A DNA stretch of 62,800 nt from Rhodothermales bacterium (GCA_017859335.1 JAFMNH010000001.1:1-62800), one strand, 5' to 3'; shown: positions 1 through 49,482, counted from the first letter of the stretch. Numbers and translations are program-made. The notes: generated by a model from the letters alone, not told the origin.

Positions 1-52
1 TAGGCAAGGGTCTGCAAAACCCTGTACGGCGGTTCGAGTCCGCCCGTCACCT
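1..52 (+). tRNA. tRNA-Cys (anticodon GCA), 3' portion only; the 5' end lies outside the window
   Basis: Anticodon stem AGGGT/ACCCT (7-11/19-23) closes the loop CTGCAAA, with anticodon GCA at 14-16. The T-arm is GGCGG-TTCGAGT-CCGCC (28-44). The acceptor strand CGTCACC (45-51) is followed by discriminator U (52), which is typical of tRNA-Cys. CCA is not encoded. Confidence 0.8.
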
Positions 53-95
53 CATAAAGGACCGTATGGCAATAGCCATTACGTCCATTTAAAAC

Positions 96-133
96 AGCCT
101 CTTAGAGCAAAGCGCTCTAAGGGGCTTTTTTTT
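96..133 (+). terminator. Rho-independent terminator downstream of tRNA-Cys
   Basis: A 13-bp stem AGCCTCTTAGAGC / GCTCTAAGGGGCT with one G-U pair and a 5-nt loop, followed directly by a run of 8 T. Confidence 0.8.
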
Positions 134-166
134 AAACGGACCTCGGCCACGTCTGGCTTTGACGAC

Positions 167-202
167 AAAGTGTTGTCAAAACTGTTGTCAGTAGTTCTGT
201 CA
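167..202 (+). repeat. Three tandem 12-bp iterons immediately upstream of the integrase start; candidate arm-type or operator sites
   Basis: AAAGTGTTGTCA (167-178), AAACTGTTGTCA (179-190) and GTAGTTCTGTCA (191-202). The core TGTTGTCA / TGTTGTCA / TTCTGTCA recurs at an exact 12-nt period and ends 20 nt before the ATG at 222. Confidence 0.4.
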
Positions 203-221
203 GGTACAGACACCGTGTACC

Positions 222-866
222 ATGGCAAGCTTGTACAAAAGAGGAGATAACTACTACCTCGCCTTTCACCAGAGTAACCAGACGCCAAACCGTAAGCATG
301 TATCGTTACGAGCGTCATCTTACAAAGTGGCTCAGCACAAGGCTGCCCGGCTGATTGTTCGCTATGAAAAGGGCGAATACGACCCGTGGCGGCCTACTGA
401 GCAGCCGAAAACACAGACCCTTGCCGCTGCAGCTACTGCCTTTCTTCAGACGCGCAGGAATCTATCCAAGCAGTCTGTCGCCAAGTATCGATCAGTCCTT
501 GGCCAATTGGTCCAACATGCTGGTAGGAAGACGGCTCTTGATCTGCTTACTACAGCGAAGGTGCAGTCCTTCATTGATGCGTCTGATCGTCGCGCCATCA
601 CCAAGCGCACCTACAGTACGACACTCTCCCCGTTCTTCAACTGGGCAGTCGCAGATGGGCTGATAGAGAAAAACCAGGTCAGAGGACCACGCCTTCCGCG
701 CGTGCCTGAGAAGACGCCTAAGACCCACTCCATACTGACCGTCCAGGATCAAACAGTAATCGGTGTATTTCATCGAACCAGAATCAGATCAACACCAAAG
801 GGCTTCTTGATTACGCACCGATGTGATCTCGAGCACCGCAACCTGGTCGCTTTGATGCGGGACTGA
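222..866 (+). pseudogene. Truncated tyrosine recombinase (phage-type integrase); N-terminal arm-binding and SAM-like core-binding region only
   Basis: The N-terminus MASLYKRGDNYYL and the segment AFLQTRRNLSKQSVAKYRSVLGQLV...KVQSFID...TYSTTLSPFFNWAVADGLIEKNQV are typical of integrase N-terminal domains. No catalytic domain (R..HxxR..Y) follows. The ORF stops at 866 and the next gene ends at 900, so about 200 aa are missing. Confidence 0.65.
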
Positions 867-899: not shown

Positions 900-1664
900 C
901 TAATCCAGTAGCACATCAATGCCGTTTTCTTCCAGCATTGATACCGTTTCCCGGGGTGCCTGGGCGTCAGTCACAATTTTGTCAATCTGAGAAGTGTCAC
1001 AAATTTTACTGAACCCCCGGACGCCAAACTTGGATGAATCGGTGACCACAATCACTTCTTGAGCTGCTGCAATCATACACTGATTCAAATCAGCCTCGTG
1101 CGGACTAGACGTCGACAGCCCATGAAGAACATCGAGCCCATCCACCCCAATAAAGAGCTTCCGACATGAAATCTTTTCAACCATCCCAACCGCGCTGGCT
1201 CCTATAACGGAGGTTGAGGTAGCACGGACAATCCCCCCCAACTGAATTATTTGTATTCCCGGGCGATCGACTAGCTCCAGCGTCGCATGAACACAAGCGG
1301 ATACTACGGTCAACTGAGCCAGATGAGGGATGTGACGAGATACCTCAAGAACAGTTGTTCCTGATCCAAGAATGATCGAGTCATTGGCATCGATGAGTTC
1401 CGCCGCTCGTCTGCCGATACTTCTCTTCTTTTCTGCATGTCGTTTAGCCTTCTCTGATAACGGACGGTCGTAGAGCGGGTGGCTTTGGGGATTAGCCCCA
1501 CCATGGGTTCGATGAAGAAGATCTCGGGCCTCAAGACTTCTTAGATCCCTTCGTACCGTAGCCTCCGATACGTTCAGCTCTTCACACAGGTCAATTACGG
1601 TTACATATCCTCGCTGTCGTAATGTTCTTAGGATATGGCTATGCCTTTCCGCTGGTGTTTGCAT
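900..1664 (-). CDS. DeoR/GlpR-family transcriptional regulator
   Basis: N-terminal HTH ILRTLRQRGYVTVIDLCEELNVSEATVRRDLRSLE and a C-terminal DeoR sugar-phosphate-binding domain (GSGTTVLEV...FIGVDGL...VVTDSSKF). Overall it is collinear with E. coli GlpR. Confidence 0.9.
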   Translation of the reverse strand: MQTPAERHSHILRTLRQRGYVTVIDLCEELNVSEATVRRDLRSLEARDLLHRTHGGANPQSHPLYDRPLSEKAKRHAEKKRSIGRRAAELIDANDSIILGSGTTVLEVSRHIPHLAQLTVVSACVHATLELVDRPGIQIIQLGGIVRATSTSVIGASAVGMVEKISCRKLFIGVDGLDVLHGLSTSSPHEADLNQCMIAAAQEVIVVTDSSKFGVRGFSKICDTSQIDKIVTDAQAPRETVSMLEENGIDVLLD

Positions 1665-1737
1665 GATCGAGTCTGATTTTTTTTGATCGTCTCGGTGTTA
1701 TTGGCGGATTAGAACAAGAAACGAATCAAAACGATCA
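1664..1737. promoter_or_regulatory. Array of four TGAT(T)CGW motifs in the divergent deoR/TBDT promoter region; candidate DeoR/GlpR operators
   Basis: TGATCGA (1664-1670) and TGATCGT (1684-1690) on the + strand. ACGAATCA (1721-1728) and ACGATCA (1731-1737) are the same motif on the - strand. The surrounding context is AT-rich. Confidence 0.3.
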
Positions 1738-1951
1738 TTTATAATCAAATAATGACTGATGTTACTATAATATTGACTGCGTCTGCTCGGGTGTGTATCG
1801 TAGTTGGGAATAGGAAGACGTGATTCCAGTTTTCTTACCGGTTTAGTAAACCACGTTTTCCGAACTGCATCAGACTGCCTGACCAATTGCCGCCAACCAT
1901 GCGCACCAGACTAAAATCTGTGGTTGAACGAAACGCCACGTAAACAACGAC

Positions 1952-4696
1952 ATGGCTACACCACTCCATACGGTCATCTCATTAGTCCTGATTATTGTTG
2001 TTCAGAGTATCTACGGACTGCCCTCTTTGGCCGATGCTGGTGAGGGTATGTCGGGTAAAATTTCTGGTCGCGTCGTCGAACTGGATAGTGGACAACCAAT
2101 GGTTGGCGCCACGATATACATCGAGGAAGCAGGGATCGGTGCGGTCGCGGCACAAGACGGCAGCTATACCATAATCAACGTCCCCCCTGGTTTATATACC
2201 GTGCGAGCCTCGATGGTTGGTTTTGGGACGGTTCGCAAGGCAGAGGTGCGTGTTTCTATCGATCGTACCACGCGTGTCGATTTCGAATTGGCAGTTGAGA
2301 TCATCCAGGGAGAGGAGGTACTGATAACGGCCACCCGTCCTATTATTGAAGTTGATCGCACGACCTCCGCTTCATACGTCGATTCCGAGGCGATCGAAAA
2401 CCTGCCGGTTCAAGAGGTATCCGACATTTTGCAGTTGCAATCTGGGGTTACCTATGATTCTCAAGGTCGGCTTCATATGAGAGGTGGTCGTTCGGGAGAA
2501 GTCGCGTATTTGGTCGATGGTATTCCCGTGACAAACCAGTACAGTGGCGGCTCCAAGATCGAGATCGAAAACAACTGGATCCAAGAGCTTCAAGTCATAA
2601 GTGGTGTATTCAATGCCGAATACGGCCAAGCTCAGTCGGGTGTTGTAAATATCGTGACTAAGGCAGGGTCAGTGGACCGATACTCAGGCGATGTGGGTGT
2701 TTATGCAGGTTCCTATTTAACATCGAACCCTAATGTCTTCATAGGGAAAGACAGCCCGGCACTCGATGAGGTGAACATACAGGGTAGTTTTCAGGGACCA
2801 CTTCGGTTTTTGCGGGATGGTTCTTTTTTCTCCAATCTCCGGTACACGGACAATTCCGGTTGGTTGAATGGAGAGCGGCGTGCCCTGATAAGTGATACGG
2901 TGCCGATTCAGGCCTACATCCAGCAGGCTCAGCAGACAGCTTCAGACCGGGACAATCTGGTGGGAATCCCGATTCCAGACTCCCTGCTTTCTGGAGATGG
3001 CTCCCTGGTGGCCATGAACCCCAGACAGCGACTGTCTCTTCATGGTCGCCTCTCGTTCCGTCTTGGATCAAAGACGTCCGTAAGCTATGCCGCTTTCGTC
3101 ACGGATGAGGAGCGCAAATCCTATCAGGATTACAGACGGTATGCACCTGACGGTCAACCAACCGTGTCTGACCTCGGGTTCAACCACCTGCTGTCAGTTA
3201 CTCTCGCACCGGATGCCCGATCTTACATGCGTCTGGGGGTCTCCTATCAGAACAACCGGATACGAAGCCGTCTCTTCAGCAACCCATTAGACCCCCAATA
3301 TCAAGGGACGCCCTACGCGACCAATGGATTTGCCTTCGGTGGTACAAGCAATGGAAGATCTAAGGCCTCCAACGCCACATTTCTGGTCAAAATCCAAGGT
3401 GAACGCCAGGTCAATAAGAATAACCTGGTCAAGGCGGGAATAGAGTGGCAAAAACATCGCGTCGAAGAACGCTCTCAGGCTACGATTTCAGATGGCCCTG
3501 TTTATCTGGAGCCCACCCAACGGATACCTGACATCAACACATCCGGTAATGACGCTTACAAGAGGGAGCCTAGTGAATTTGTCGCGTTCATCCAGGACAA
3601 GCTTGAAGTTGATGAGTTGGTCGTCAATGCGGGACTACGATTTGATCTGTGGCGGCCCAATGCTCCCGTTCCTGAAAACCTTCAGGCGGTCACCGACCCG
3701 GATGATGGCATTCGATTGGCCACCGATTTCGTGGACGCTCGGTCCTCGTATCAGCTAAGTCCCCGTGTTGGGTTGGCGTTCCCCATCTCAACCCGGGGGG
3801 TATTACACGTCTCTTATGGCCGTTTCTTTCAGGTACCCCGCTTCTCGTACATTTTTACCAACTCCGAATTTGAGGTGGAGCTCGGAGATTTGGAAACGAT
3901 TATGGGCAACGCCAACCTCAAACCCGAGCGCACGACAGCCTATGAACTGGGTCTTCAGTACGCACTAACCTCTTCATGGAAGATCGAGGCTACGATCTAC
4001 TACAAGGACATCAAAAATCTTCTTGGGCAGGAGATCGTCAACACTGTCGATAAAAAGGTATACGCCAGATACATAAACAGGGACTATGGAAACACGCGAG
4101 GATTCGCTTTTTCCCTACTTCGCCAATTTGCCGACCAGTTCGGTTTGACTATCGACTACACCTACCAAGTCGCTCGCGGAAATGCCTCAGATCCGAATGC
4201 GGTCTTTTTCAACAATCAGACACAGCCTCCGGTAGAACCTGAGAAACAGGTCATCCCGCTCGACTGGGATCAACGCCACTCCCTCAATGGCTCGCTGATT
4301 CTCGGAGACCCTCGCGGGTTCACCCTGAGTATCATCGGCCGCTTCTCCTCTGGACAGCCCTATACGCCGACCAACCCGGGCAGCCAGCTCTCCTCCCAGT
4401 TGGCCAACAGTGAAACCAAGCCTGCCCGACTTAACCTGGACGTGAATATATCCCGCGAGCTACAAGTGGCAGGGTATAAAGCGCGCATTTATGCCAAAGG
4501 GTTCAATGTATTGGATCGACTCAACGCCAAGTCAGTGTACTCCAGCACTGGCAACGCCTTCCATCCATACAGGACCTTGGGAGAAGCAGAGGTTTTGGCC
4601 ATGAATCCGAATTTCAGTTCAGCCGAAGTCGACCTGAGACCCGATTACTTCGATCCACCCCGTCGTATCATCGTCGGGATTGACCTGCGATTTTGA
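1952..4696 (+). CDS. TonB-dependent receptor with N-terminal carboxypeptidase-regulatory-like domain
   Basis: Signal peptide, then a CarbopepD_reg-like segment (GRVVELDSGQPMVGATIYIEE...DGSYTIINVPPGLYTVRASMVGF). Plug motifs follow (LQLQSGV, LHMRGGRSGEVAYLVDGIPV), then a long beta-barrel ending in a terminal aromatic residue (IDLRF). Confidence 0.9.
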   Translation: MATPLHTVISLVLIIVVQSIYGLPSLADAGEGMSGKISGRVVELDSGQPMVGATIYIEEAGIGAVAAQDGSYTIINVPPGLYTVRASMVGFGTVRKAEVRVSIDRTTRVDFELAVEIIQGEEVLITATRPIIEVDRTTSASYVDSEAIENLPVQEVSDILQLQSGVTYDSQGRLHMRGGRSGEVAYLVDGIPVTNQYSGGSKIEIENNWIQELQVISGVFNAEYGQAQSGVVNIVTKAGSVDRYSGDVGVYAGSYLTSNPNVFIGKDSPALDEVNIQGSFQGPLRFLRDGSFFSNLRYTDNSGWLNGERRALISDTVPIQAYIQQAQQTASDRDNLVGIPIPDSLLSGDGSLVAMNPRQRLSLHGRLSFRLGSKTSVSYAAFVTDEERKSYQDYRRYAPDGQPTVSDLGFNHLLSVTLAPDARSYMRLGVSYQNNRIRSRLFSNPLDPQYQGTPYATNGFAFGGTSNGRSKASNATFLVKIQGERQVNKNNLVKAGIEWQKHRVEERSQATISDGPVYLEPTQRIPDINTSGNDAYKREPSEFVAFIQDKLEVDELVVNAGLRFDLWRPNAPVPENLQAVTDPDDGIRLATDFVDARSSYQLSPRVGLAFPISTRGVLHVSYGRFFQVPRFSYIFTNSEFEVELGDLETIMGNANLKPERTTAYELGLQYALTSSWKIEATIYYKDIKNLLGQEIVNTVDKKVYARYINRDYGNTRGFAFSLLRQFADQFGLTIDYTYQVARGNASDPNAVFFNNQTQPPVEPEKQVIPLDWDQRHSLNGSLILGDPRGFTLSIIGRFSSGQPYTPTNPGSQLSSQLANSETKPARLNLDVNISRELQVAGYKARIYAKGFNVLDRLNAKSVYSSTGNAFHPYRTLGEAEVLAMNPNFSSAEVDLRPDYFDPPRRIIVGIDLRF

Positions 4697-7600
4697 TGAT
4701 GAGCATGCGCACAACGGACATGCAGAGGGAAAAAGTCTTGGGTATCACACAACCCCTGGTCAGCGTTTCCGCGTGCCGTTCCATTTTACTAACCCTTCTG
4801 CTATGCTGCCTGTGCGCCCCTTCATCACTATCGGCACAGGACGTTCTGGAATCAGGCCGTGAATTCCGCCGCACTGGGGTCCATGATGGCAATCTGGTTT
4901 TTACCCGCTACTCCAACTATGGTAATCTGGGCAGTCGGTACGAGCCGCCCAAGATGGAATGGCCCAAGGGGTCCGGTCAATGGTATGGATTTGAGTTTGT
5001 GATGATGGCGGGGGCCGAGGTACAAGACGAAGAAGGCCGCTATATCCGCATTGTTTCGGAGAATTACACTAATCCAGGCTCTTTTGACATCAGCCCAGAT
5101 GGCACCCACACCTATGGATGGGAGCCACTGGCCGGATACTTCAATGAAAGCTCGTTCAACGAGCTTGAGTACCCCGCAATGAGTCACCTCGAGGAAACGT
5201 GGCCAGACCCTTGGCCCCATGATTACCCTGGAGATCGGGGAGCAAGGGATGGACTATGGAATGGCGAATTCGGCGCTTTTGAGCGTGCGGATCAGGAGTC
5301 CTATTATGTGATGGATGACCGCAATAATGATGAATTCAACTATTACCCCTTTGTAGGAAGCAGTGCTGATTCATCTGATTACCCGCTGGGCCGACGTGGT
5401 ATAGGTCTTCAGGTGGGTGTTCGTGGTTATCAATGGGTCAACGTACAGGCGGAAGACATTCTTATCGTTCGCTACGATATAACAAACGTCAGCGACAAAG
5501 ACCTGATCAAAGTTGTCTTCGGGATGTATGTCGACCCCGCCGTTGGGGGACAGGGGGATTCGGTGGATGATTTCGCCGACTTTGAACGCCAGGACGATAT
5601 CGTTTACATGTGGGACCGGGATGGCATCGATAACCGAGGGCGCCCGGGTGTCGGATATTTTGGATTCGCCTTCCTTGAAAGCCCAGGAGACCCCCTTGAT
5701 GGCGAGGACAATGATCAGGACGGAATTGCTGACGAAGTACAAGAGAATGAGGCTGGAATTCGTATCGACGGACAGGATGCGATTCTGGCCGAATTATCCT
5801 CCCGTTACCTAATGACGGATTTCGAGAGCTTTTTCGGTAGTCCTACACTGCTGCCTGCAGTGGAGTATGGGCAATGGTGGACAGGAGACGAGGATGCTGA
5901 TTGGGTCCCCTTCAACGACCTGAACGGAGATGGTCTCAAAGAGGATGGGGAGCCGCTCTTGGACGATAAAGGGTCCGATGGTCTAGGTCCAGGAGACGAT
6001 GGTTACCCCGGCCCTGATTCAGACGGCACCGAAAACAACGGCCGTCCAGATCAAGGTGAACCCAACTTTGGAAAAACCGACAACGACGAGTCGGATCAGA
6101 TTGGTCTGACGAGCTATGTCCTTAGACCAGCCGGAAACGTCAGTGATGACGAACGGACCTGGCTTGAAATGGAGCCCAACCGCTTCGGCGGCGAGATGCC
6201 AAGCAACCTCGCCTTTGTTTACGGATCAGGATATTTCTCCCTTCCTCAGGAAGCTACGCGAAAATTTGCCATCGCCTGTCTCTTTGGACGCAATTTCGAT
6301 GACATCCTCCGAAATAAGCGGACCATGCAGAAGATCTATGATGCCGATTACTCCTTCGCAAAGCCTCCAAACAAGTCGAAGCTAACCGCCGTGGCCGGAG
6401 ATCAATCGGCTGTCCTGATGTGGGATAATATCGCCGAGTTTTCCAGGGATCCCATCTACGGAACGGACTTTGAGGGGTACATGATCTATCGCGCGACGGA
6501 TCCCTCTTTCAATTCCATCAAGACAATCACTGACGCCTTTGGGAACCCGATTCTCTGGCAGCCAATCGCGCAATTTGATCTGGATAATGGGCTTAAGGGA
6601 CCTCATCCCGTTCAGATCGGCGAAACGGGGGCTGTCTTTAACACTGGTACAGACTCTGGGCTACGCTACTACTACCAAGATTCAGGCTTGGATAATGGCC
6701 GATCTTATTACTACGCCCTGGTACCCTACGACGCCGGATATGATGTGGATTTCTTTGACCGAGGCATTTCAACCCGGGACAAACTCACACCCATCGCTCC
6801 CAGTGAAGCCTCTAAAATCATCCAGACCGATCTGATCGGAAATGTGACTTTTGTTGACCGCAATACCGCTGTTGTGGTGCCCAATGCCCCGGCTGCTGGG
6901 GTTGTACTGGGAGGATTTGACGGTGATATTGCTCATGAAGGCCCTGGTACCGGCGTTGTTGAAGTAGAGGTAGTCGTACCAGACAGCCTGGAGCAGGGAG
7001 CACAATATCGGATCTCCTTTACTGATACCACCAAGGCCTTGTTGACGCGCGGCGTGCGCATCGACGAGCTCACGAGAAACCAAGTTATCTACGAAGCGGC
7101 CGAATTTGACAGCGTGGACCTTTCCCGCCGATTGTTGGGAGGTATGAATTTCAGGATTTACAGTCCACCAGAGCCTATTCCTACAACCTTCGGTTGGCAA
7201 GACGGCGCATCGAACCTTTCTGCCTCAATAGACCTGGTCGAATCCGGGCGTACGGTCCCCATTCCGGACGATATTGAAATACGAATAGGCGCTCCTGGCG
7301 TGGATTCCTCATTTGTGCAGTTCGCTTTCGAACAACGTACGCCCGTCAATTTTGAGGTTTATGGTGCGACCACAGGGCGCAAATACCAGTTTATTTTCGA
7401 GGAGACGGAGAGTCCTGATGGACTGTTGAGCCCCGGCGATCTGATCACACTCGTATTTGATCCTGTTGGGTTCCGGTTCAACCTGGGCTGGCGATTCCGC
7501 TTTGATGCTCCTGACGGGGAGGCTCCCAGGCTCCCGGAACCGGGAGATGTGTACCGACTGGATGTGAGTAAACCATTTTCCTCACTCGACATCATCTCAT

Positions 7601-7962
7601 TCTCAACCATTGAGACCCGGTTTGAAAATGAAAAGGCCAAAGATGACCTTTCCAATATTTACGTCGTGCCTGACCCGTATGTGGCTAGCGCGTCTTGGGA
7701 GCGCCCCTTGTTCAATGCATCAGGAAGAGGTGAACGCCGCATAGACTTTGTAAATCTACCTCCTCAGTGTACGATTCGAATATTCAATACGGCCGGGAAA
7801 CTGGTTCAAGTATTACACCACGACTCTCCATTTGAAGATGGATCAGAGAGTTGGGATCTCGTCTCAAAGGACGGTCTGACTGTCGCCTTTGGTGTGTATT
7901 TCTTTCACGTTGAAACGCCTGATTCGGGCGAGACGACCGGCAAATTCACGCTCATAAAATGA
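4693..7962 (+). CDS. Large secreted protein (1089 aa) with acidic Ca-binding-like repeats and a T9SS-type C-terminal sorting domain
   Basis: Signal-like N-terminus. D-rich DxDxDG-type stretches occur at nt about 5690-6105 (DGEDNDQDGIADE; NDLNGDGLKEDGEPLLDDKGSDGLGPGDDGYPGPDSDGTENNGRPDQGEPNFGKTDNDESDQ). An FN3-like segment is present (RYYYQDSGLDNGRSYYYALVPYD). The C-terminus IRIFNTAGKLVQVL...GVYFFHVETPDSGETTGKFTLIK is CTD-like. The start overlaps the TBDT stop by 4 nt. Confidence 0.85.
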   Translation: MMMSMRTTDMQREKVLGITQPLVSVSACRSILLTLLLCCLCAPSSLSAQDVLESGREFRRTGVHDGNLVFTRYSNYGNLGSRYEPPKMEWPKGSGQWYGFEFVMMAGAEVQDEEGRYIRIVSENYTNPGSFDISPDGTHTYGWEPLAGYFNESSFNELEYPAMSHLEETWPDPWPHDYPGDRGARDGLWNGEFGAFERADQESYYVMDDRNNDEFNYYPFVGSSADSSDYPLGRRGIGLQVGVRGYQWVNVQAEDILIVRYDITNVSDKDLIKVVFGMYVDPAVGGQGDSVDDFADFERQDDIVYMWDRDGIDNRGRPGVGYFGFAFLESPGDPLDGEDNDQDGIADEVQENEAGIRIDGQDAILAELSSRYLMTDFESFFGSPTLLPAVEYGQWWTGDEDADWVPFNDLNGDGLKEDGEPLLDDKGSDGLGPGDDGYPGPDSDGTENNGRPDQGEPNFGKTDNDESDQIGLTSYVLRPAGNVSDDERTWLEMEPNRFGGEMPSNLAFVYGSGYFSLPQEATRKFAIACLFGRNFDDILRNKRTMQKIYDADYSFAKPPNKSKLTAVAGDQSAVLMWDNIAEFSRDPIYGTDFEGYMIYRATDPSFNSIKTITDAFGNPILWQPIAQFDLDNGLKGPHPVQIGETGAVFNTGTDSGLRYYYQDSGLDNGRSYYYALVPYDAGYDVDFFDRGISTRDKLTPIAPSEASKIIQTDLIGNVTFVDRNTAVVVPNAPAAGVVLGGFDGDIAHEGPGTGVVEVEVVVPDSLEQGAQYRISFTDTTKALLTRGVRIDELTRNQVIYEAAEFDSVDLSRRLLGGMNFRIYSPPEPIPTTFGWQDGASNLSASIDLVESGRTVPIPDDIEIRIGAPGVDSSFVQFAFEQRTPVNFEVYGATTGRKYQFIFEETESPDGLLSPGDLITLVFDPVGFRFNLGWRFRFDAPDGEAPRLPEPGDVYRLDVSKPFSSLDIISFSTIETRFENEKAKDDLSNIYVVPDPYVASASWERPLFNASGRGERRIDFVNLPPQCTIRIFNTAGKLVQVLHHDSPFEDGSESWDLVSKDGLTVAFGVYFFHVETPDSGETTGKFTLIK

Positions 7963-9020
7963 CGTTTCGTGGATTCATAGCCATGTTCGCCATCCCCGCT
8001 GCGTTCTTAACGCCGGTGGCGATTGCGCAGGAAGTGGACTCTCCTCCAGCCAATTTTGTGGAGGATGTGTCCAATGCAGGAACGAGTGCAGCAGCTTTCT
8101 TGCAGATCGGCGTTGGGGCGCGTGCCATGGCCATGGGCAATGCGGGTACAACCCTTGCAAGGGATGCAACGGCGTTATATTGGAATCCGGCTGGCGTAGC
8201 CTCATTAACCTCCCAAGCGGCTGTTACATTCGACCATACCGACTGGCTTGTTGATACCAAGCTGGACTATGTTGGTATGGCGTTTCGGGTGCCGGGTGTT
8301 GGAGCGCTGGGACTGAGCGTATTGGCATTTGATGCTGTGGACGAACAACCAGTACGTACCATTCTTCAACCTGAAGGTACCGGAGAGTTCTACAGCGCAT
8401 CGGATATGATGATGGGGTTGACCTATGCAACAGCGCTAACAAATCGTTTTTCCGCTGGCATAACAGGCAAATACATCCGAGAAACCCTTTGGAATGAATC
8501 GGCCAGGGCATTCGCTGTTGATTTGGGCATTCTGTATCAGACAAAGCTGGACGGCTTCACTTTGGCTGCCAGCATCCTCAATTTTGGAGGCAACATGCGG
8601 CTTGAGGGTCGAGATCTGCGAAGAGCTTTTGATGATGACCCCAAAAACTTTAGTAATAACCAGCTGAATGTGAGTCTTGATACGGATCAGTTTTCGATCC
8701 CGCTGACCTTCAGATTTGGCTTCGGTTACGAAACCAAGATCACAGACTATCACCGAATCACACTAGCCGCCGATCTGACTAACCCCTCGGATAACAATGA
8801 ATCGGTGAATCTTGGACTCGAATACACTTTTGGCAATACCCTCTCCCTTCGCGGGGGATACGCAGCGCTCTTTGAGCGAGATCGTGTAAGTGGGCTGTCC
8901 TTTGGAGTCGGCGTTGATCGCAGGCTCCTGGATCGCGTTCGGGTTGTAGCCGAGTATTCCTACGCTGACATGGGCTTTCTTGGGGCTGCCCAACGTTTTA
9001 CCCTTGGCGTCGGACGATAA
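7959..9020 (+). CDS. PorV/PorQ-family outer-membrane beta-barrel protein
   Basis: Signal peptide plus the family signature near the N-terminus (AGTSAAAFLQIGVGARAMAMGNAGTTLARDATALYWNPAGVA). The rest has an alternating beta-strand pattern. The start is an ATGA overlap with the upstream gene. Confidence 0.8.
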   Translation: MTFRGFIAMFAIPAAFLTPVAIAQEVDSPPANFVEDVSNAGTSAAAFLQIGVGARAMAMGNAGTTLARDATALYWNPAGVASLTSQAAVTFDHTDWLVDTKLDYVGMAFRVPGVGALGLSVLAFDAVDEQPVRTILQPEGTGEFYSASDMMMGLTYATALTNRFSAGITGKYIRETLWNESARAFAVDLGILYQTKLDGFTLAASILNFGGNMRLEGRDLRRAFDDDPKNFSNNQLNVSLDTDQFSIPLTFRFGFGYETKITDYHRITLAADLTNPSDNNESVNLGLEYTFGNTLSLRGGYAALFERDRVSGLSFGVGVDRRLLDRVRVVAEYSYADMGFLGAAQRFTLGVGR

Positions 9021-9044
9021 CCAGAAGCACTTTTCGTACCACAA

Positions 9045-12005: not shown

Positions 12006-12008
12006 AAC

Positions 12009-14000: not shown

Positions 14001-15517
14001 TGATCCGTTGCATGCCACATATGATGATGGCGCTTCTGTTCTTGGTGGCGTGCTCGGATACCCAACATAAATCAGGCGTCATAGCTCGGATTGGAGACAC
14101 CTCAATCACGGGATTGGAATTCCAACGAGACTTCGAGCAGGGATTTCCGGAGCTTAAACGAGGCGCAGATCCGAGAGCATCCTATCTGGAACACATGATT
14201 GACGAGCGCCTCCTGGCGATGGAGGGCTACAGAATCGGTATTGACTCATCCTCGTCGGTGCAGCGCCGAATCAAGAGCCTCACGAATGAGCTGCTCGTGG
14301 GCAAGATATTCGACGAGGACGCTGCTCGTTCGGTCCATGTAAAACCCTCTGACATTGATTCCCTGCGTAGGCTCGATGCCGTCCGATTTGCTCTTCGTTT
14401 CATCCCTGTCCCTGACCCTGAATTTGCAGATACCGTTCGAAAGAGATTTGTGGATGAGGGTTTTGATGCGGCACTTGCGATGATAGCGGCCGGGTCGGGC
14501 GATGGTTTGAGTCTTATGTCGGCCTCACTCGAAACAGGCCTGCTATCCGCAGCCGAGCTGGACCCTGCCGTATGGGAGGCCATTCGCAGCCTGCCTGTCG
14601 GCACTATTTCAGAGCCAATTGCCTATCGGAATTCGTTCCTGCTGGTTGAAGTGATCGATATTGTGCGGACACCGATAACAGCGGATCCGGGTCCCGAGGC
14701 GCTCGAACGATATCGCAAGATTGTCTACGCCGAGCAATCCCAACGAGCAGCTCGTTCCCTGATTCAAAGGACAGTCGCTGATAGCAACCTTCGATTGAAA
14801 GGCTCAGTCTATGGGCGCCTGGAGCAGGCATTGTGGCAGTGGTTAAACAATCGAGAAGTAGAGCCGAAGAATGATTACCTGACGCTTGGAGCGCAGTTGG
14901 CTACCGACATCTCTCCGTATGCGAAATCCCTGAGAGACCTTGGCCCAGATACGGTTATGGAGACAAGTCAGCGCTCATGGTCGGTTGCGGAATTCTTGGA
15001 GGAGTACCCCCATGATCGGTATCCGGTGTCCACGCGCTCTTTCGAGGAGTTTCGTTCGGATCTCTACGATGCGTTTGGACTGCTGGTCAGGGATCGCAGT
15101 TTCATTCGCTTGGCGATCGAGGAGGGATATGACAGTGATCCCTCACTGCAGACAGAAGTCAGACGCTGGTCCGACAAGTGGACCTATCAAGCGTATCGAA
15201 GCCTCATAGCCGATTCAGTGTCAGTAGATGAAGATGATATACTGGTGTATTTCGAGCGCTACCGTTCCAATTGGCCGGATGCCTCCTCTTTGAAAGAGGT
15301 ACGTCCAGAGGTAGAGCGCCAGGTCAGACATGCCAAGACGCGCGCTGTACTTGAAGACATCCTGGTAGAACTGCGGAGCACCACACGCATCGAGATTGAT
15401 CGAGATGCGCTTGAGCTGATTTCGATTCCATCCACTGAGGTTGCATCGGCACCCACCCAACTATTCAAGGCCAGCACAGGTCGACCTGCGTGGCCCGTCA
15501 CGGATTACGGCCTTTAG
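13997..15517 (+). CDS. SurA/parvulin-like peptidyl-prolyl isomerase lipoprotein (diverged)
   Basis: Lipobox LFLVAC. The N-terminal region is SurA-like ([19 protein letters not shown]). A parvulin-like core is present ([24 protein letters not shown]). The start overlaps the upstream stop by 4 nt. The domain call is by eye only. Confidence 0.7.
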
Positions 15518-15524
15518 AAGTCAC

Positions 15525-17036
15525 ATGCCCAACATGAATTACGTTTTATCCCTCGACCAAGGCACGACAAGTTCACGTGCCATCCTCTTCGATCGAAACG
15601 GAAAGGTAGTGGACGTAGCGCAGAGGGAGTTTACCCAGCACTATCCACAACCAGGCTGGGTAGAGCATGACGCAGAGGAAATCTGGGCCTCTCAGCTGGA
15701 GGTGACCAAAGAGGTTCTTGCTCGGGTTGGATCAGATGGCTCGGATGTGGCAGCCATTGGAATAACCAATCAGCGGGAAACAACAGTAGTGTGGGACCGC
15801 CGATCTGGTAAACCCATCTCTCACGCCATTGTGTGGCAGGACCGACGCACCGCAGCCTTCTGCGATCAGCTCAAAGACCAGGGACACGAAGATGAGATCC
15901 GGGCCCGGACGGGCCTGGTTGTGGACGCCTACTTCTCAGGCACGAAGGTGCGCTGGATCCTGGACAACGTAGACGGAGCCCGGGAGGCGGCAGATGCGGG
16001 TCATCTTGCCTTCGGGACAGTGGATAGCTGGCTTATGTGGAATCTGACGGGGGGTGAAGTACACGCGACGGATCCATCCAATGCCTCCCGAACAATGCTC
16101 TTCAACATCCATGATCTTGCATGGGATGATTCCCTCCTGGAAATCATGGGGATCCCCCGCTCCATGCTACCGGATGTAGTGCCGTCCAGTGGCCTTATTG
16201 GAACATCTCAGGCCTCTCTTCTCGGACAGGAAATCCCCATTTCAGGGGTGGCGGGTGACCAGCAGGCAGCCCTTTTTGGGCAAGTATGCGTGGATCCAGG
16301 CATGGTCAAAAACACGTATGGTACGGGTTGCTTCATGCTCATGAACACCGGCTCTCGTGCGGTAGCCTCCCAGAACAATCTGCTCACAACTGTGGCGTGG
16401 CAGATTGGAGATGAAACGTCCTACGCTTTGGAGGGAAGTGTCTTCATTGGGGGTGCCGTCGTTCAGTGGCTACGAGATGGTCTGGGAATAATCCAGACGT
16501 CATCCGAGGTGGAAGATCTGGCAGGAACCGTTGAGTCAAGCGACGGCGTATTCCTGGTACCGGCATTTGCAGGCCTCGGAGCACCTCATTGGGATCCGTA
16601 TGCGCGTGGCACGCTGATTGGATTGACACGTGGCTCAACAGCCGGGCACATCGCACGAGCAGCACTGGAGAGCATTGCCTTCCAGAGCGCCGATCTGGTT
16701 GATGCCATGGAGGCAGACTCCCGGATCGAACTTGCCAGCATGCGCGTCGATGGCGGCGCGGCCGCGAACAACATTCTAATGCAGTTCCAGGCAGACCTTC
16801 TGGAAGTGCCCGTTGTGCGGCCTAAGATTCTTGAGACCACTGCGTTGGGAGCCGCCTATCTGGCTGGGCTGGCCGTCGGCTTCTGGAGTGATATTGAAAC
16901 CCTGAAAGCACTGTGGGCAGAGGACCGAACGTTTACTTCGCAGATGTCCGAGACCCATCGTGGGGAGCTGACCACATCCTGGGCGCGGGCAGTGAAGCGG
17001 TCCCAAAATTGGATAGAAGCCGACTCGAATGCCTGA
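15525..17036 (+). CDS. glpK: Glycerol kinase
   Basis: [46 protein letters not shown] and [10 protein letters not shown] are canonical FGGY/GlpK motifs. The ATG at 15525 (alternative 15534) is chosen over the upstream in-frame extension, which overlaps the preceding gene. Confidence 0.95.
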
Positions 17037-18642
17037 ACCCGACCAACGATATCCATCGGACGGAACCCTTGCTTCGCCTCTGGGCCATCTGAATCGAACG
17101 CGTTCGCTTGCAGAAATGCGAGATGGTGGTGTGTGGGACGTCATGATTATCGGAGGAGGAGCCACGGGGCTGGGAGCGGCCGTTGATGCCGCCTCAAGGG
17201 GGTTGCGCACACTGCTGCTTGAGCGGGACGACTTTGCAAAAGGAACGTCCAGCCGAAGCACGAAACTCGTACATGGAGGCATTCGATATCTGAAGCAGGG
17301 ACGCGTGAAAATGGTGATGAAGGCCCTTGAAGAACGGGACCTGCTCCGCATGAATGCCCCACACCTGGTAGCATTGCGAGAATTTATCGTTCCGTGTCGG
17401 AATATGGCTGAAATGGCGTTCTACGGCAGCGGATTGAAAGTGTATAACATCTTGGCCTCCGGCCGTGGCATACCCCCATCGCGGATATTGCGTAGAAACG
17501 ACGTTATCAGCGCGCAAGAAGGCATCAATGATGCGTCCATGATGGGCGGCGTATCCTATGTGGACGGTCAATTCGACGATGCCCGGTTGGCCCTCGTTTT
17601 AGCCCAGACCTGCGTCCGCGAAGGGGGTACCGTGGTCAATCATTGCGGTGTGACGCACCTATCGGCGACTTCTCCGTCCGGCATGAATGTCCGGGCGAGA
17701 GATACGGAGTCAGGCGAGGAATTCAGTATCAACGCCCGCTGCGTGGTCAATGCGACCGGCGTATTTGCCGATGCTGTGCGCACGATGGATGGTTCGAACA
17801 ACAAGAGTCTGATACGGGCCAGTCAGGGAATTCATCTGGTATTGCCTTCAGCATTCCTGCCCGGAGATGCTGCCATCATGGTGCCGCGCACGGATGACGG
17901 CAGAGTGCTCTTCTGCATCCCATGGAAGGGACATGTCTTGCTCGGGACGACCGATACCCCGGTCGAGCGCATTGAATCTGAACCAAAAGCACTGGAAGAC
18001 GAGATTTCTTTCTTGATAGGCCATGCGGGCAGATACCTGCGTCGGGCGCCGACCCGTGCGGACGTGTTGAGTGTCTTCGTCGGACTCCGTCCGCTCATTG
18101 GATCTTCCGATGGCCCCACAAAATCGCTCTCAAGGGAGCATGTGATTCACGAATCAGCCTCCGGCTTGATAACCATCGCAGGTGGTAAGTGGACAACCTA
18201 CCGACACATGGCCGAAAAAGTCGTGGATCGCGTGTGCAAACGTCTTGGTGCTTCCGACAAAAAGTGCGTGACCAGAAATCTGCCTCTTTATGGCCACATG
18301 ACCGATCAAGGGACGTTACGTTTTGGTGAGTATGGCACAGACCATCACGCCATCGTGAATACCATTGACGATGAACCGAATGGGAGCGATCGTTTGCACC
18401 CTGATCTGCCCTATGTGGCAGGACAGGTTACCTGGGCTGTAGAGAACGAAATGGCTCGGACCGTGGAAGATGTATTGGCCCGTCGCACACGTGCCCTTTT
18501 CTTCAATGCACAGGCCAGCAAGGACATGGCTCCGCGAGTAGCTCAGCTGATGGCCGATCATCTGAACCAGACTGCCGACTGGATAGACCGGGAGGTTGCC
18601 TCTTTCAACACGCTGGCGTCTCAGTATCAGTTGCATGCGTAA
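17029..18642 (+). CDS. glpD: FAD-dependent glycerol-3-phosphate dehydrogenase
   Basis: Dinucleotide fold [53 protein letters not shown], with the GlpD C-terminal helical domain. There is an 8-nt overlap with glpK. Confidence 0.95.
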
Positions 18643-18687
18643 GGCAGCGATTGGAATCCGACCAGAAAGAATCAAACTTCGAAAGAC

Positions 18688-19563
18688 ATGCAAAAGCGTT
18701 TCCGCATCTTTTCCTACCTCTTCATGGCGTGCCTGATCGGCTGTTCGTCTGTTACTGAATATGATCTTCAGGGACATCGCGGTGCCAGGGGCCTGCTTCC
18801 AGAAAATTCAGTCCCAGGATTTTTGCTGGCTCTTGAGTACGGGGTGGACACCATTGAGATGGACGTGGTCGTGTCGGCTGATTCGCATGTCGTCGTATCC
18901 CATGAACCCTGGATGTCACCGGAAATATGCTCTCATCCGGATGGCACGGTCGTCGGTGAGGAAGAGGCCATGTCGCTCAATCTATTTACGATGCCCTATG
19001 AGCGCATTGCCCTCTTTGACTGCGGATCAAGGGGTAACGAACGCTTTCCAGAGCAGGAACCGCTGTCCGTAGTGAAGCCCCTTCTGGCGGATGCCCTCAG
19101 AGCTGTCGAATCGGCAGCAGAGACACCCGTTCGGTACAACATCGAAATCAAGTCCAGGAAAGAAGGCGATGGCGTGTTCCATCCGGATGTAGACACCTTT
19201 GCCAGCTTGGTCCACCAGGTTATCGACGAATACGAGCTAATGGATCGCACGACGATCCAGTCATTTGATCCACGTTCGCTCGAGTCCTATCACCGCATCG
19301 CACCGCAGGCAACGCTTGCTTTGCTGGTCAGCAATGAATGGGGGTTTCAAGCCAATATGGACCGACTCAGCTTTCTTCCCCAGATTTACAGTCCGAATCA
19401 TCGCCTTGTCGATCGTGCGCTCGTGGATTCTGTACATTCAGCGGGGTTGACGATCGTACCCTGGACCATAAACGAGACGGCGCGAATGCGTGAGCTTCTC
19501 GATCTTGGTGTAGATGGACTGATTACTGACTATCCTGATCGAGCGAAAGCCATGGCCAACTGA
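18688..19563 (+). CDS. glpQ: Glycerophosphodiester phosphodiesterase, lipoprotein
   Basis: Lipobox CLIGCSS. GDPD motifs HRGARGLLPENSVPGF...GVDTIEMDVVVSAD..VVSHEP, and a C-terminal VDGLITDYPD. Confidence 0.9.
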   Translation: MQKRFRIFSYLFMACLIGCSSVTEYDLQGHRGARGLLPENSVPGFLLALEYGVDTIEMDVVVSADSHVVVSHEPWMSPEICSHPDGTVVGEEEAMSLNLFTMPYERIALFDCGSRGNERFPEQEPLSVVKPLLADALRAVESAAETPVRYNIEIKSRKEGDGVFHPDVDTFASLVHQVIDEYELMDRTTIQSFDPRSLESYHRIAPQATLALLVSNEWGFQANMDRLSFLPQIYSPNHRLVDRALVDSVHSAGLTIVPWTINETARMRELLDLGVDGLITDYPDRAKAMAN

Positions 19564-19631
19564 GGCCTGTACGAAAGGCGGCTTTGATTCCGGAAGCTGC
19601 ACCCACAATCAACTTATCATCTCGTACCGAA

Positions 19632-20348
19632 ATGACACCCTTCATCGCTGAAATTCTGGGAACGGCTCTTCTTCTATACCTCGGCAACGGTACCGTTGCA
19701 AACGTCGTATTGAGTAAAACCAAAGGAAACAACAGCGGCTGGATTGTGATTACCGTGGGCTGGGGATTGGCGGTCTTTGTGGGGGTATTCTCCGTAGCAG
19801 CGATCAGTGGCGCGCACATCAACCCGGCCGTCACACTGGGATTGGCTGCGGCAGGAAAGTTTTCCTGGTCCCTGGTACCGCTCTACATGGCTGCACAGTT
19901 CATTGGCGGAGCTCTGGGCGCTTTTCTGGCATGGCTGCACTATCGGCCCCATTTTGCAAAGACTGAAGATGCCGATCTCAAGCTGGCTGTCTTCTGTACG
20001 GCTCCTGCCATCCGGGAGACGTCGTCCAACCTGATTTCAGAAATTCTGGGGACGTTTGCGCTCGTGTTTTGTGTTCTTCTTCTGGCAGCGCCGGAAGTGG
20101 GTCTCGGAGCGCTGGACGCTTTACCTGTCGCCTTGCTGGTCCTCGTAATCGGGATCGGACTCGGCGGCACCACGGGGTATGCTATCAACCCGGCCCGTGA
20201 CTTCTCGCCTCGATTGATGCACGCGCTCCTTCCTGTCGCGGGTAAACGGGATAGTGATTGGTCCTATTCCTGGATTCCTGTCGTGGGTCCGTTCATCGGC
20301 GGCTTGCTCGCTGCTGGCCTGTATCTCGTAATCGGGGCCGGGGTATGA
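19632..20348 (+). CDS. glpF: MIP-family glycerol uptake facilitator (aquaglyceroporin)
   Basis: Two NPA boxes (HINPAVTLG and AINPARDF) and six predicted TM helices. The ATG at 19632 is preferred over the TTG at 19584 used in the ORF track. Confidence 0.9.
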   Translation: MTPFIAEILGTALLLYLGNGTVANVVLSKTKGNNSGWIVITVGWGLAVFVGVFSVAAISGAHINPAVTLGLAAAGKFSWSLVPLYMAAQFIGGALGAFLAWLHYRPHFAKTEDADLKLAVFCTAPAIRETSSNLISEILGTFALVFCVLLLAAPEVGLGALDALPVALLVLVIGIGLGGTTGYAINPARDFSPRLMHALLPVAGKRDSDWSYSWIPVVGPFIGGLLAAGLYLVIGAGV

Positions 20349-21688
20349 TTGGTATTCTCCGGCCTCCCTCCCATCAGCCTCGCGTTCCGGAAGAGAAAGT
20401 TGACGAGAAGTATCGCCGCCTGAGATGGCAGGTGTTCATGGGCATCTTTGTCGGCTATGCCGGCTACTACTTCGTCCGAAAGAACTTCTCTCTGGCCATG
20501 CCCTACCTGATCGAGGAAGGGTATTCCCGAACGGAACTGGGCTTTGCTTTATCTGGGGTGGCCATCGCATACGGATTGTCCAAATTCTTGATGGGCAGTG
20601 TTTCGGATCGAAGCAATGCCCGCTCATTCATGGCGCTGGGTTTGGCGGTCAGCGCCGTCATCATGATCATGATGGGGACACTGCCGTTTGCCACGGCATC
20701 AGTTACCATGATGTTCACGCTCCTGCTGCTGAACGGGTGGTTTCAGGGGATGGGCTGGCCCCCCTCTGGTCGAACCATGGTGCACTGGTTTTCAGCCAGC
20801 GAGCGCGGCACGAAAATGGCCTTCTGGAACGTGGCACACAACGTAGGCGGGGGGCTTGTGGGGCCAATCGCCATACTGGGCGTCGCCATTTTTGCCGATT
20901 GGCATGCCATCTTGTATACGCACGGCATATTGTCACTGATCGTGGTGGTGTTCATCCTTCTGACGGTCAGAGACACGCCGCAGAGCCAGGGCCTCCCCCC
21001 GATTGAAGAACATCGAAAGGACTACCCAAAAACCTTCGATTACGATTCGACCCACGAAAAGGAGTTTTCGACGAGGGAGATCTTTTTCGGGAATGTCTTC
21101 AATAATCGGCTCTTGTGGACGATTGCCCTGGCCAACGCCTTCGTCTATCTGGTTCGGTATGGCGTGCTGGATTGGGCGCCGACTTACCTGGGAGAGGTCA
21201 AGAACTTCTCTTTCGATGACTCGAGCTGGGCCTATGCACTCTACGAGTGGGCAGGAATTCCAGGTACTTTGCTTTGTGGCTGGATGTCAGACCGACTTTT
21301 CAGAGGCCGCAGAGCGCCCGTCAGCATCATCTACATGTTCCTGACAGGTATATGCGTCGTCATCTACTGGCTCAATCCCCCCGGAAATCCAGGGGTAGAT
21401 ATTGCTATGCTGATCTCAATTGGTTTCCTCATCTACGGCCCGGTGATGTTGATAGGGGTCCACGCGCTGGACCTCGTACCCAAAAAAGCGGCCGGAACGG
21501 CTGCAGGATTCACCGGCCTGTTCGGATATGTTGGGGGGGCCGTAGCCGCAAATGTGGCTATTGGAGCCCTGGTAGACGCAGCAGGGTGGGATGCCGGATT
21601 TTTGTTGATTGTTAGCGCCTGTGTTGCGGCAATGATATTGATTTCGCTTACCTGGAAAGCCGAAAGAGAGGTTCTTCTAGGCGATTAA
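20345..21688 (+). CDS. glpT: MFS glycerol-3-phosphate/phosphate antiporter
   Basis: The N-terminus EKYRRLRWQVFMGIFVGYAGYYFVRKNFSLAMPYL is the GlpT/UhpT signature. There are about 12 TM segments. The ATG at 20345 forms an ATGA overlap with the glpF stop, and the longer ORF-track extension overlaps glpF. Confidence 0.9.
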   Translation: MIGILRPPSHQPRVPEEKVDEKYRRLRWQVFMGIFVGYAGYYFVRKNFSLAMPYLIEEGYSRTELGFALSGVAIAYGLSKFLMGSVSDRSNARSFMALGLAVSAVIMIMMGTLPFATASVTMMFTLLLLNGWFQGMGWPPSGRTMVHWFSASERGTKMAFWNVAHNVGGGLVGPIAILGVAIFADWHAILYTHGILSLIVVVFILLTVRDTPQSQGLPPIEEHRKDYPKTFDYDSTHEKEFSTREIFFGNVFNNRLLWTIALANAFVYLVRYGVLDWAPTYLGEVKNFSFDDSSWAYALYEWAGIPGTLLCGWMSDRLFRGRRAPVSIIYMFLTGICVVIYWLNPPGNPGVDIAMLISIGFLIYGPVMLIGVHALDLVPKKAAGTAAGFTGLFGYVGGAVAANVAIGALVDAAGWDAGFLLIVSACVAAMILISLTWKAEREVLLGD

Positions 21689-45303: not shown

Positions 45304-45323
45304 GAGCGCAGGAAGGTGAGGAT

Positions 45324-47672: not shown

Positions 47673-47685
47673 GGCTCGATCTCGA

Positions 47686-49308: not shown

Positions 49309-49482
49309 GGGCGGGGCGGGTGGTTTCTGCAGGATGTCGTAAACGACGAGACCGTCATGGGTTCCAACAGCCGCTCAAAACGGCGGTATTCATGGCTTTT
49401 GAGGTGGAATCTCCCGTTATTGTCACTCCCTCCTTTTGTTCATAGATGGATGCCCTGAAAGGGCTCTGATACACGGACTGTA

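Follow-up and report, generated by a model that had tools for sequence, protein, structure and literature searches.

The locus at positions 900-21688 of a 62,800-nucleotide stretch of DNA from a Rhodothermales bacterium (GCA_017859335.1, JAFMNH010000001.1:1-62800; this whole stretch is called the window below) raises the question of why genes for an outer-membrane transporter and its surface partners run directly into glp genes for the catabolism of glycerol and sn-glycerol-3-phosphate (G3P). The answer we lean towards is that the locus is a utilization system for extracellular glycerophosphodiester material, built on a new type of outer-membrane platform. Such a system would most likely be a TonB-powered surface importer assembled by a type IX secretion system (T9SS); we infer both the formation of the complex and its substrate.

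Organization of the locus

The locus contains twelve genes, in which TBDT stands for TonB-dependent transporter and PPIase for peptidyl-prolyl isomerase:

900-1664, minus strand: DeoR/GlpR-family repressor gene, divergent from the TBDT gene and 287 nt from its start
1952-4696, plus strand: TBDT gene (CarboxypepD_reg, Plug and barrel; Pfam)
4693-7962, plus strand: gene of a 1089-aa protein ('big1089'), 4-nt overlap with the TBDT gene, no Pfam family
7959-9020, plus strand: PorV/PorQ-family barrel gene, 4-nt overlap with the 1089-aa gene (NF033709)
9045-12005, plus strand: gene of a 986-aa LTD protein, 24-nt gap after the PorV-like gene (LTD x3, Laminin_G_3, Por_Secre_tail)
12009-14000, plus strand: gene of a 663-aa LamG protein, 3-nt gap after the LTD gene (LamG and C-terminal domain; Pfam)
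13997-15517, plus strand: gene of a 506-aa parvulin/SurA/PrsA-like PPIase lipoprotein, 4-nt overlap with the 663-aa gene (Rotamase_2)
15525-17036, plus strand: glpK, glycerol kinase, 7-nt gap after the PPIase gene (TIGR01311)
17029-18642, plus strand: glpD-type FAD-dependent glycerol-3-phosphate dehydrogenase gene, 8-nt overlap with glpK (DAO and DAO_C)
18688-19563, plus strand: glpQ-type glycerophosphodiester phosphodiesterase gene, encoding a lipoprotein, 45-nt gap after glpD (GDPD)
19632 (ATG)-20348, plus strand: glpF-type aquaglyceroporin gene, 68-nt gap after glpQ (Pfam MIP)
20345-21688, plus strand: glpT, glycerol-3-phosphate:phosphate antiporter, 4-nt overlap with glpF (TIGR00712)

The list of open reading frames (ORFs) reproduces what a first-pass annotation of the same DNA had described: eleven co-directional genes on the plus strand between 1952 and 21688, junctions of -4, -4, +24, +3, -4, +7, -8, +45, +68 and -4 nt in this order, and a divergent DeoR/GlpR-type regulator. 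The six surface genes named there also stand as a set, including the TBDT, the PorV/PorQ-like barrel and the parvulin-like lipoprotein. Their order is corrected, as the PorV-like gene is the third and directly follows the 1089-aa gene. Three T9SS cargo proteins had been claimed; a canonical type-A C-terminal domain (CTD) of the T9SS was found in only two proteins of the cluster, the 986-aa LTD protein and the 663-aa protein (Por_Secre_tail E~4e-9).

Conservation of the gene neighborhood

A scan of a genome collection with a 12-sequence alignment yielded 236 confirmed loci. The 78 kept for comparison come from Rhodothermales, Caldithrix, Ignavibacteria/Melioribacteraceae, Fidelibacterota/Marinimicrobia and KSB1-type metagenome-assembled genomes (MAGs). 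Neighborhoods were read by tBLASTn with the window proteins and proteins of distant loci and by ORF clustering, and the neighbors were classified with Pfam and NCBIfam. A TBDT gene stands immediately upstream of the 1089-aa homologue in all 65 loci with enough flank, and a PorV-like barrel gene follows it in 65 of 69. The TBDT, a protein of about 1,050-1,100 aa without known domain and a PorV/PorQ-family barrel thus form a near-invariant trio.

Among the 52 loci whose downstream sequence is 8 kb or longer, 37 have G3P genes, a number that rises to 40 when phosphoesterase genes are counted as well. The most constant neighbor is GlpD or a GlpA/B-like pair (32 loci). Several G3P-negative loci end at a contig edge or bear an insertion sequence (IS), as in L014, an otherwise typical Rhodothermales locus with a DDE transposase gene (14703-16373, minus strand) between its PorV-like and LTD genes. 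By a rough estimate, a single-copy gene would fall by chance into a 20-kb window of a 3-5 Mb genome at a rate well under 1%, and chance juxtaposition of the surface module and the glp genes is rejected on the 78-locus comparison.

Conservation across the phyla of the FCB (Fibrobacteres-Chlorobi-Bacteroidetes) group had been set beforehand as a check, and its outcome was strongly positive. Absence of the surface module beside glp genes in relatives had been named as grounds for rejection; the module adjoins glp genes in most relatives. Subtype A comprises the loci that are at least 50% identical to the window; all 34 of them with 8 kb or more of flank downstream encode the LTD and 663-aa proteins, and these two are what is specific to the glp-linked subtype.

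Variants of the locus

The link to G3P genes takes at least eight architectures, with GlpD or a GlpA/B-like pair as the oxidizing enzyme and a DeoR, GntR, RpiR or SorC regulator. In Rhodothermales the order is PPI-glpK-glpD(-glpQ-glpF-glpT), PPI-glpD-glpQ or LamG-glpK-glpD, each with a divergent DeoR gene. Caldithrix has the order PAP-glpT-TBDT-big-PorV-glpD-GntR-LTD-LamG-GDPD, where PAP is a purple-acid phosphatase; its GlpT is 45% identical, its GlpD scores 395 bits (cut-off 360) and its regulator is of the GntR/UTRA type. Ignavibacteria/Melioribacteraceae have the trio followed by glpD-GntR-LTD-LamG-GDPD-GDSL hydrolase, and glpF and glpK lie divergently upstream in L062. In Fidelibacterota, GlpA/B-like genes and a SorC-type regulator precede the trio, which is followed by genes for an LTD protein, GDPD, a SASA-type esterase, a LamG protein and a purple-acid phosphatase.

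Subtype B (~46% identity) has an RpiR/SIS regulator, a 608-aa CTD protein, the trio, a PPIase, a major facilitator superfamily (MFS) transporter of the organophosphate:phosphate antiporter (OPA) family, a GlpA-like DAO+BFD dehydrogenase resembling G3P oxidase/GlpA, and a GlpB-like flavoprotein. It ends either with an APC-family permease and GlpK or with two T9SS-tailed PhoD phosphatases; L059 has the order PorV-glpK-MFS-NPP-permease-GlpA-GlpB, NPP being a nucleotide pyrophosphatase/phosphodiesterase-type enzyme. The permease (L056 19991-21412, L059 18495-19895, L071, L072) sits among G3P genes; its best NCBIfam matches, both under cut-off, are TIGR03428 urea-carboxylase-system permease (230 bits) and TIGR00907 'amino acid permease' (189 bits). 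We take TIGR00907 (2A0304) to be an amino-acid/choline transporter family; if so, the permease could take up the alcohol of a head group, for example choline or ethanolamine.

The closest relative with a long contig, L079 (GCA_038142385.1), is 93% identical to the window; upstream of its glpR gene lie genes for an NPP phosphodiesterase with a T9SS tail and for an LTD-CTD protein. This phosphodiesterase is absent from the window and is not conserved in the other loci. The TBDT and glpK genes of L079 (7405-10001 and 20839-22331) are each called as two fragments, probably through frameshift errors of a long-read assembly rather than as pseudogenes. Several MAGs have two unlinked copies: both subtypes occur in MAG032 (L060 and L062), SRP178699_co1_181 holds L033 and L035, and in a Fidelibacterota MAG the whole trio is duplicated in tandem (L068 1-14268). 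Upstream of the GlpT-like gene of L035, an Fe-ADH_2-family dehydrogenase is encoded at 1297-2685; this family presumably includes sn-glycerol-1-phosphate (G1P) dehydrogenases, and in that case a relation to the G1P of lipoteichoic acid or archaeal lipids is possible.

That the link outlasts both rearrangement and the replacement of genes by non-orthologous ones speaks for a functional tie and against inherited synteny. Frequent neighbors are secreted phosphoesterases (PhoD, purple-acid phosphatase, NPP, GDPD), many with T9SS tails, and a phosphodiester substrate fits their adjoining the trio in other loci. The same neighbors bear on another explanation, in which the module would free phosphate from organic compounds when phosphate is scarce, and the glp genes would only clear away the remaining carbon. 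Around the trio in Caldithrix, Balneola, Fidelibacterota and type B loci stand genes for PhoD, purple-acid phosphatase and NPP, frequently with a T9SS tail, and in Bacillus subtilis GlpQ and PhoD are teichoicases induced by phosphate starvation. We hold such scavenging of phosphorus to be improbable. The window cluster lacks phosphatase, PhoB/PhoR, pst and ugp genes, and the regulators of the loci are all of catabolic, sugar-phosphate-sensing types (DeoR, GntR/UTRA, RpiR/SIS, SorC). Transport is by GlpT or by an antiporter of the OPA family, which moves phosphate out for each G3P taken in, and the full oxidative route, by GlpD or the GlpA/B-like pair, is the neighbor retained in those 32 loci. 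The phosphate-exporting antiporter and the catabolic regulators favor use of the substrate for carbon and energy instead.

The glp genes

GlpK and GlpT exceed the cut-offs of their equivalog models, with 743.8 bits on TIGR01311 (cut-off 590) and 689 bits on TIGR00712 (cut-off 632.55), and GlpF matches Pfam MIP and scores 189 bits on TIGR00861 (cut-off 171). The best NCBIfam match of GlpD, a G3P dehydrogenase model, reaches 297.5 bits and is under the cut-off of 360; family-level membership is retained because the DAO and DAO_C architecture is that of GlpD/GlpO. GlpQ matches GDPD with E=2.8e-33 and has a signal peptide with the lipobox LIGC, which marks it as a lipoprotein. GlpT is an antiporter that exports phosphate, and Escherichia coli employs GlpT for carbon use and Ugp for phosphorus scavenging. 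GlpQ is described in PMC7086022 as a stereospecific exo-hydrolase of poly-glycerol-phosphate wall teichoic acid.

The surface proteins

The TBDT has the plug and 22-strand barrel of its class, with matches to Plug (E=2.8e-11), TonB_dep_Rec_b-barrel (E=3.1e-26) and an N-terminal CarboxypepD_reg domain (Pfam). It reached no NCBIfam equivalog; its score on the SusC/RagA model TIGR04056 is 58.7 bits (cut-off 368.25), with only residues 36-243 matching.

The 1089-aa protein consists of a signal peptide, an N-terminal beta domain of about 500 residues, Fn3/Ig domains and a CTD-like C-terminal sandwich. Its AlphaFold2 (AF2) model is all-beta (predicted local distance difference test score, pLDDT, 78.8), with Asp-rich, Ca-like loops of the thrombospondin-type-3-like kind in the N-terminal domain and a seven-strand sandwich predicted at residues 1017-1087. 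Pfam gave no family for the protein, and none for the N-terminal domain alone, even at E <= 10. The family is large: 2116 homologues at E <= 1e-5 were found among the candidates scored, and an exhaustive profile search returned at least 1045 clusters (50% identity) at E <= 1e-30 and 4102 at E <= 1e-10. Homologues from different phyla share 45-60% identity along 95-100% of their length, and those that have a name are all called "hypothetical protein". In a Foldseek comparison with the PDB only Fn3/Ig chains came up, at TM <= 0.1, PorZ (5m11) and PorU (6za2) being two of these. No enzyme fold was evident, as PDB sequences searched by profile yielded just a single Fn3 match (E=0.43) besides.

The CTD-like end is the best-conserved segment of this protein (column identity 0.74, against 0.65 overall) and weakly matches the PorZ C-terminus (E=8e-4, NCBIfam). 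It appears to be a divergent CTD-like end rather than a canonical T9SS CTD. PorZ keeps its CTD to bind PorQ, and PorU likewise stays bound to its barrel; a review proposes that cognate PorV-like barrels shield CTDs from cleavage (PMC10202324). Since the CTD-like end is the best-conserved part, a permanent PorZ-PorQ-like tether to the adjacent barrel is suggested; the low conservation of the CTD in the 663-aa cargo, the weak PorZ match, the PorZ and PorU chains among the Foldseek matches and the 4-nt overlap of the two genes were counted toward the same idea. The 1089-aa protein would then be a permanently tethered structural partner and not ordinary cargo.

The barrel protein scores 218 bits on NF033709 (cut-off 90) over model positions 1-324 of 326. 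It is under the equivalog cut-offs of PorV and PorQ (91.4 against 250 and 72.7 against 220 bits; NF033710/NF033711), PorV2 (83 against 325) and BamG (32.4 against 250), and is predicted to be a 14-strand-type outer-membrane barrel, translationally coupled to the 1089-aa gene. PorV-family barrels are FadL homologues (PMC12578637), and the window barrel has a weak Toluene_X match. On this basis the locus could be a harvester of membrane lipid that takes intact or lyso-phospholipid from debris or vesicles, with the barrel as a FadL-type lateral channel, the TBDT taking the deacylated head group and the glp genes consuming the backbone. The score of the barrel on the PorV/PorQ model is far above that on FadL-type models, and in every case its gene is coupled to the 1089-aa gene with the CTD-like end; the three LTD domains in tandem and the LamG domains suggest a soluble or polymeric ligand. 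The window cluster has no lipase, and beta-oxidation or fatty-acid activation genes were found in none of the loci examined. Further observations that speak for the lipid explanation come from other loci: in L027, L045 and L058 the GDPD gene is followed by GDSL/SGNH lipase-like genes, an NPP-type phosphodiesterase is a neighbor in L059 and L079, and the subtype B permease would point to choline-type import if the presumed identity of TIGR00907 holds. On balance, lipid harvesting is unlikely.

The two proteins with a canonical CTD differ in their bodies. The 986-aa protein has three LTD domains (E=1e-46), a LamG jelly roll (Laminin_G_3) and a CTD (Por_Secre_tail/TIGR04183, E=4.2e-9 and 6.3e-9). 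LTDs accompany extracellular nucleases and phosphoesterases (PMC6085458). In the 663-aa protein (CTD E=3.4e-9 and 3.9e-7 on the same models), the AF2 model (pLDDT 89.4) consists of a LamG jelly roll at 30-245, a propeller-like domain of about 19 strands at 287-557, and the CTD. The middle domain (287-557) has no match in Pfam or among PDB sequences, and a Foldseek search of the protein for an enzyme fold gave a list filled by LamG/botulinum-Hc matches. The middle domain has invariant His, Asp and Glu residues and could conceivably be catalytic. The CTD is the least conserved part of the 663-aa protein (column identity 0.48), and homologues of the protein occur in Caldithrix, Ignavibacteria and Fidelibacterota loci. 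The PPIase-like lipoprotein (Rotamase_2 match, weak SurA_N_3 match, lipobox LVAC) is a putative chaperone, with a homologue in 39 loci.

Regulator and transcription signals

The DeoR-family protein (900-1664) has HTH_DeoR and DeoRC domains (Pfam); its best NCBIfam matches, AgaR and GlpR_Halo, are both under cut-off. A divergent DeoR gene occupies the equivalent position in 11 Rhodothermales loci. Two features lie between it and the TBDT gene:

1773-1801, plus strand: candidate promoter TTGACT-17-TATCGT, upstream of the TBDT gene (consensus scan)
1748-1758 and 1769-1779: direct repeat AATAWTGACTG at 21-nt spacing, candidate operator, overlapping the -35 element of the promoter

Six orthologous intergenic regions upstream of the TBDT gene share the conserved -35 and -10 blocks, TTGAYTGC and GTGTGTATCGT. 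The direct repeat at 1748-1779 could serve as an operator; a half-site-like motif of the GlpR operator, AACGATCAT, was tried as well and rejected, as it is not enriched in the window. The consensus scan found no plus-strand promoter-like or terminator-like site at any gene junction. At the PPIase/glpK junction (15460-15560) there is no stable hairpin, and the sequence folds no better than shuffled sequence (z = -0.32). A promoter or terminator at this junction (15517/15525) had been named as an observation that would sever the two halves of the locus, and neither scan nor folding gave one. Rfam detected no regulatory RNA or riboswitch in the 5' leader or the rest of 1-26000, the sole match being a tRNA fragment at 1-52. 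One transcript from the TBDT gene to glpT is plausible on these grounds.

Proposed function

The TBDT, the 1089-aa protein and the PorV/PorQ-family barrel would form one complex. The 1089-aa protein would be exported by the T9SS, retain its CTD-like domain and dock permanently on its cognate barrel, as PorZ does on PorQ, which would place its large Ca-loop/Fn3 body over the transporter. The 3xLTD-LamG and LamG-propeller cargo proteins would capture the substrate on the cell surface and might also cleave it, and fragments would pass through the TBDT into the periplasm. There the lipoprotein GlpQ, judged by its family, would release G3P, which GlpT would import in exchange for phosphate and GlpD would oxidize to dihydroxyacetone phosphate, which enters glycolysis. 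Free glycerol would be handled by GlpF and GlpK. The parvulin-like lipoprotein may chaperone the large beta-rich components. The 20-kb string would be read from one promoter upstream of the TBDT gene, and the divergent DeoR/GlpR-type repressor may sense a phosphorylated intermediate, which is probably G3P. The best candidates for the substrate are glycerol phosphate in oligomeric or polymeric form, such as teichoic-acid fragments, or deacylated phospholipid head groups, the latter being the main alternative. A polymeric or oligomeric phosphodiester is favored by the use of a TBDT, the three LTD domains and the PhoD, NPP and GDPD neighbors. The claim of the first-pass annotation that the surface module feeds glycerol-phosphate catabolism is thus supported by the conserved neighborhood and by the two refuting observations that did not appear; co-expression, import and the substrate are what we infer from it.

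Several points weigh against this explanation. No depolymerase is recognizable among the six surface genes of the window, and small glycerophosphodiesters would need no TBDT. The N-terminal fold of the 1089-aa protein and the middle-domain fold of the 663-aa protein match nothing known, so that binding or catalysis by them is a guess. The CTD assignment of the 1089-aa protein is weak: Por_Secre_tail (Pfam) and TIGR04183 gave no match, and hhalign aligned its end with the CTD of the 663-aa cargo only at E=1.4e-3 (probability 17%). Co-transcription is read from gene spacing and the absence of signals only, and the promoter scan covered sigma-70-type sites only. All relatives are MAGs, and a cultured carrier was not identified among the 78 loci. 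Finally, the KSB1-type loci (L040, L041, L043, L044, L061, L070) carry the trio with a co-directional DeoR gene and no glp genes, so that the trio itself is not substrate-specific. Three to five FG-GAP/ASPIC-UnbV CTD proteins are inserted there before the PorV-like gene; the KSB1-type trio is a paralogous system, and the trio is thus a generic platform, extremely conserved, with exchangeable cargo.

The KSB1-type loci also give some room to the idea that the module is a platform of general use at the surface or in adhesion, or helps in T9SS sorting, and passes no substrate to the glp enzymes, their adjacency being due to shared regulation, hitch-hiking or, at the extreme, chance. The three CTD proteins have no recognizable enzyme fold, and a simple role in targeting proteins to membranes has been suggested for LTD domains (PMC6085458). 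This idea is very improbable in our judgment, against the association with G3P genes in 37 of 52 loci, which extends across phyla, gene orders and non-orthologous enzyme types. The junctions are overlapping or a few nucleotides long, the TBDT is an importer by family, and secreted phosphoesterases recur in the loci.

If the locus is a glycerophosphodiester utilization system, a wider proposal follows, which we offer as a tentative one that may well prove wrong. The trio may represent an unrecognized class of outer-membrane 'utilisome' of the FCB-group phyla, in which a CTD-tethered T9SS protein on a dedicated PorV-family barrel caps a TBDT and does the job of the SusD-type lipoproteins. The glp-linked subtype might then be the first teichoic-acid/poly-glycerophosphate utilization locus of diderms.

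Full-text literature searches found no published description of this gene set. Its link to a TBDT, a PorV-family barrel and G3P catabolism gives the large unannotated 1089-aa family a testable function. It suggests how FCB phyla without SusD build substrate-capturing outer-membrane complexes, and it would extend the role of the T9SS CTD and PorV-like barrel from secretion to the permanent assembly of uptake machines. The pairing recurs in several phyla and points to an undescribed way in which bacteria may feed on material that contains glycerophosphate, such as debris of cell walls or membranes. Phosphodiester-linked glycerol (teichoic acids, phospholipid head groups) is a substantial and poorly traced part of marine and sediment organic matter, and the route would operate in abundant, mostly uncultured lineages. 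If the glp-linked subtype is indeed a utilization locus for teichoic acid, Gram-positive wall debris would give marine and sediment food webs a defined source of carbon.

Flanking genes

Upstream of glpR, window positions 1-866 hold the 3' fragment of a tRNA gene (1-52, Rfam) and an ORF at 222-866, adjoining glpR, that has an N-terminal SAM-like integrase domain only. This edge of the locus may mark a boundary of integration or rearrangement, since L079 has the NPP phosphodiesterase and the LTD-CTD protein where the window has tRNA and integrase fragments. Convergent with glpT, a gene at 21864-25199 (minus strand) encodes a 1111-aa GH81 endo-beta-1,3-glucanase-like protein with PKD, CBM6 and a T9SS CTD; the protein shows that in this organism the T9SS serves other secreted hydrolases too. 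Genes unrelated to the locus at 43003-61158 encode a ClpB-like AAA+ protein, a Ser/Thr kinase with TPR, a 1656-aa S8 subtilase and two hybrid histidine kinases, of which one has 1524 aa and several PAS domains.

Comparison with known systems

A utilization locus centered on a TBDT follows a known logic; what would be new is the T9SS-type partner, the PorV-family barrel, the lack of SusD and the proposed phosphodiester class of substrate. The SusC/SusD-type polysaccharide utilization loci of Bacteroidota ('utilisomes') likewise combine a TBDT with N-terminal CarboxypepD_reg and surface binding proteins, a hydrolase in the periplasm, a transporter in the inner membrane, catabolic enzymes of the cytoplasm and a regulator of their own, and their surface partner is also encoded directly downstream of the transporter. 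They differ in that no SusD/RagB-type Pfam family was found in the cluster proteins or in the scanned neighbors of related loci, and the window TBDT is below the SusC/RagA model. Its partners are T9SS-type proteins and a PorV-family barrel and not surface lipoproteins, the substrate would be a phosphodiester and not a glycan, and the hosts are mainly FCB phyla other than Bacteroidota.

In the T9SS attachment complex of Porphyromonas gingivalis, PorZ-PorQ and PorU-PorV similarly pair a surface protein bearing a C-terminal beta-sandwich with a PorV/PorQ-family barrel. The 1089-aa protein, however, has neither the beta-propeller body of PorZ nor the peptidase domain of PorU, its barrel is below the PorV, PorQ and PorV2 equivalogs, and the pair has a TBDT gene and catabolic genes, not genes of T9SS components, for neighbors. 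In the beta-barrel assembly machinery (BAM) of Bacteroidota, BamG-BamH, a FadL/PorV-like 14-strand barrel is the attachment platform for a large surface protein, and PPIases take part in assembly (PMC12578637). The window barrel is far under the BamG cut-off, its partner is not a lipoprotein, and its context is catabolic.

The glp regulon of E. coli (glpR, glpFK, glpTQ, glpD) comprises the same five functions and a repressor of the DeoR/GlpR family. In the window all genes form one string and not several operons, GlpQ is a lipoprotein, and the regulator diverges from an outer-membrane module that is absent in E. coli. The teichoic-acid hydrolases GlpQ and PhoD of B. subtilis, where PhoD acts as an endo-teichoicase, resemble the loci described here in the GDPD-family GlpQ as a downstream enzyme and in the PhoD homologues that flank the type B trio. 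Unlike the window locus, the B. subtilis route serves Gram-positive autolytic recycling under Pho control, with no outer membrane, TBDT or T9SS.

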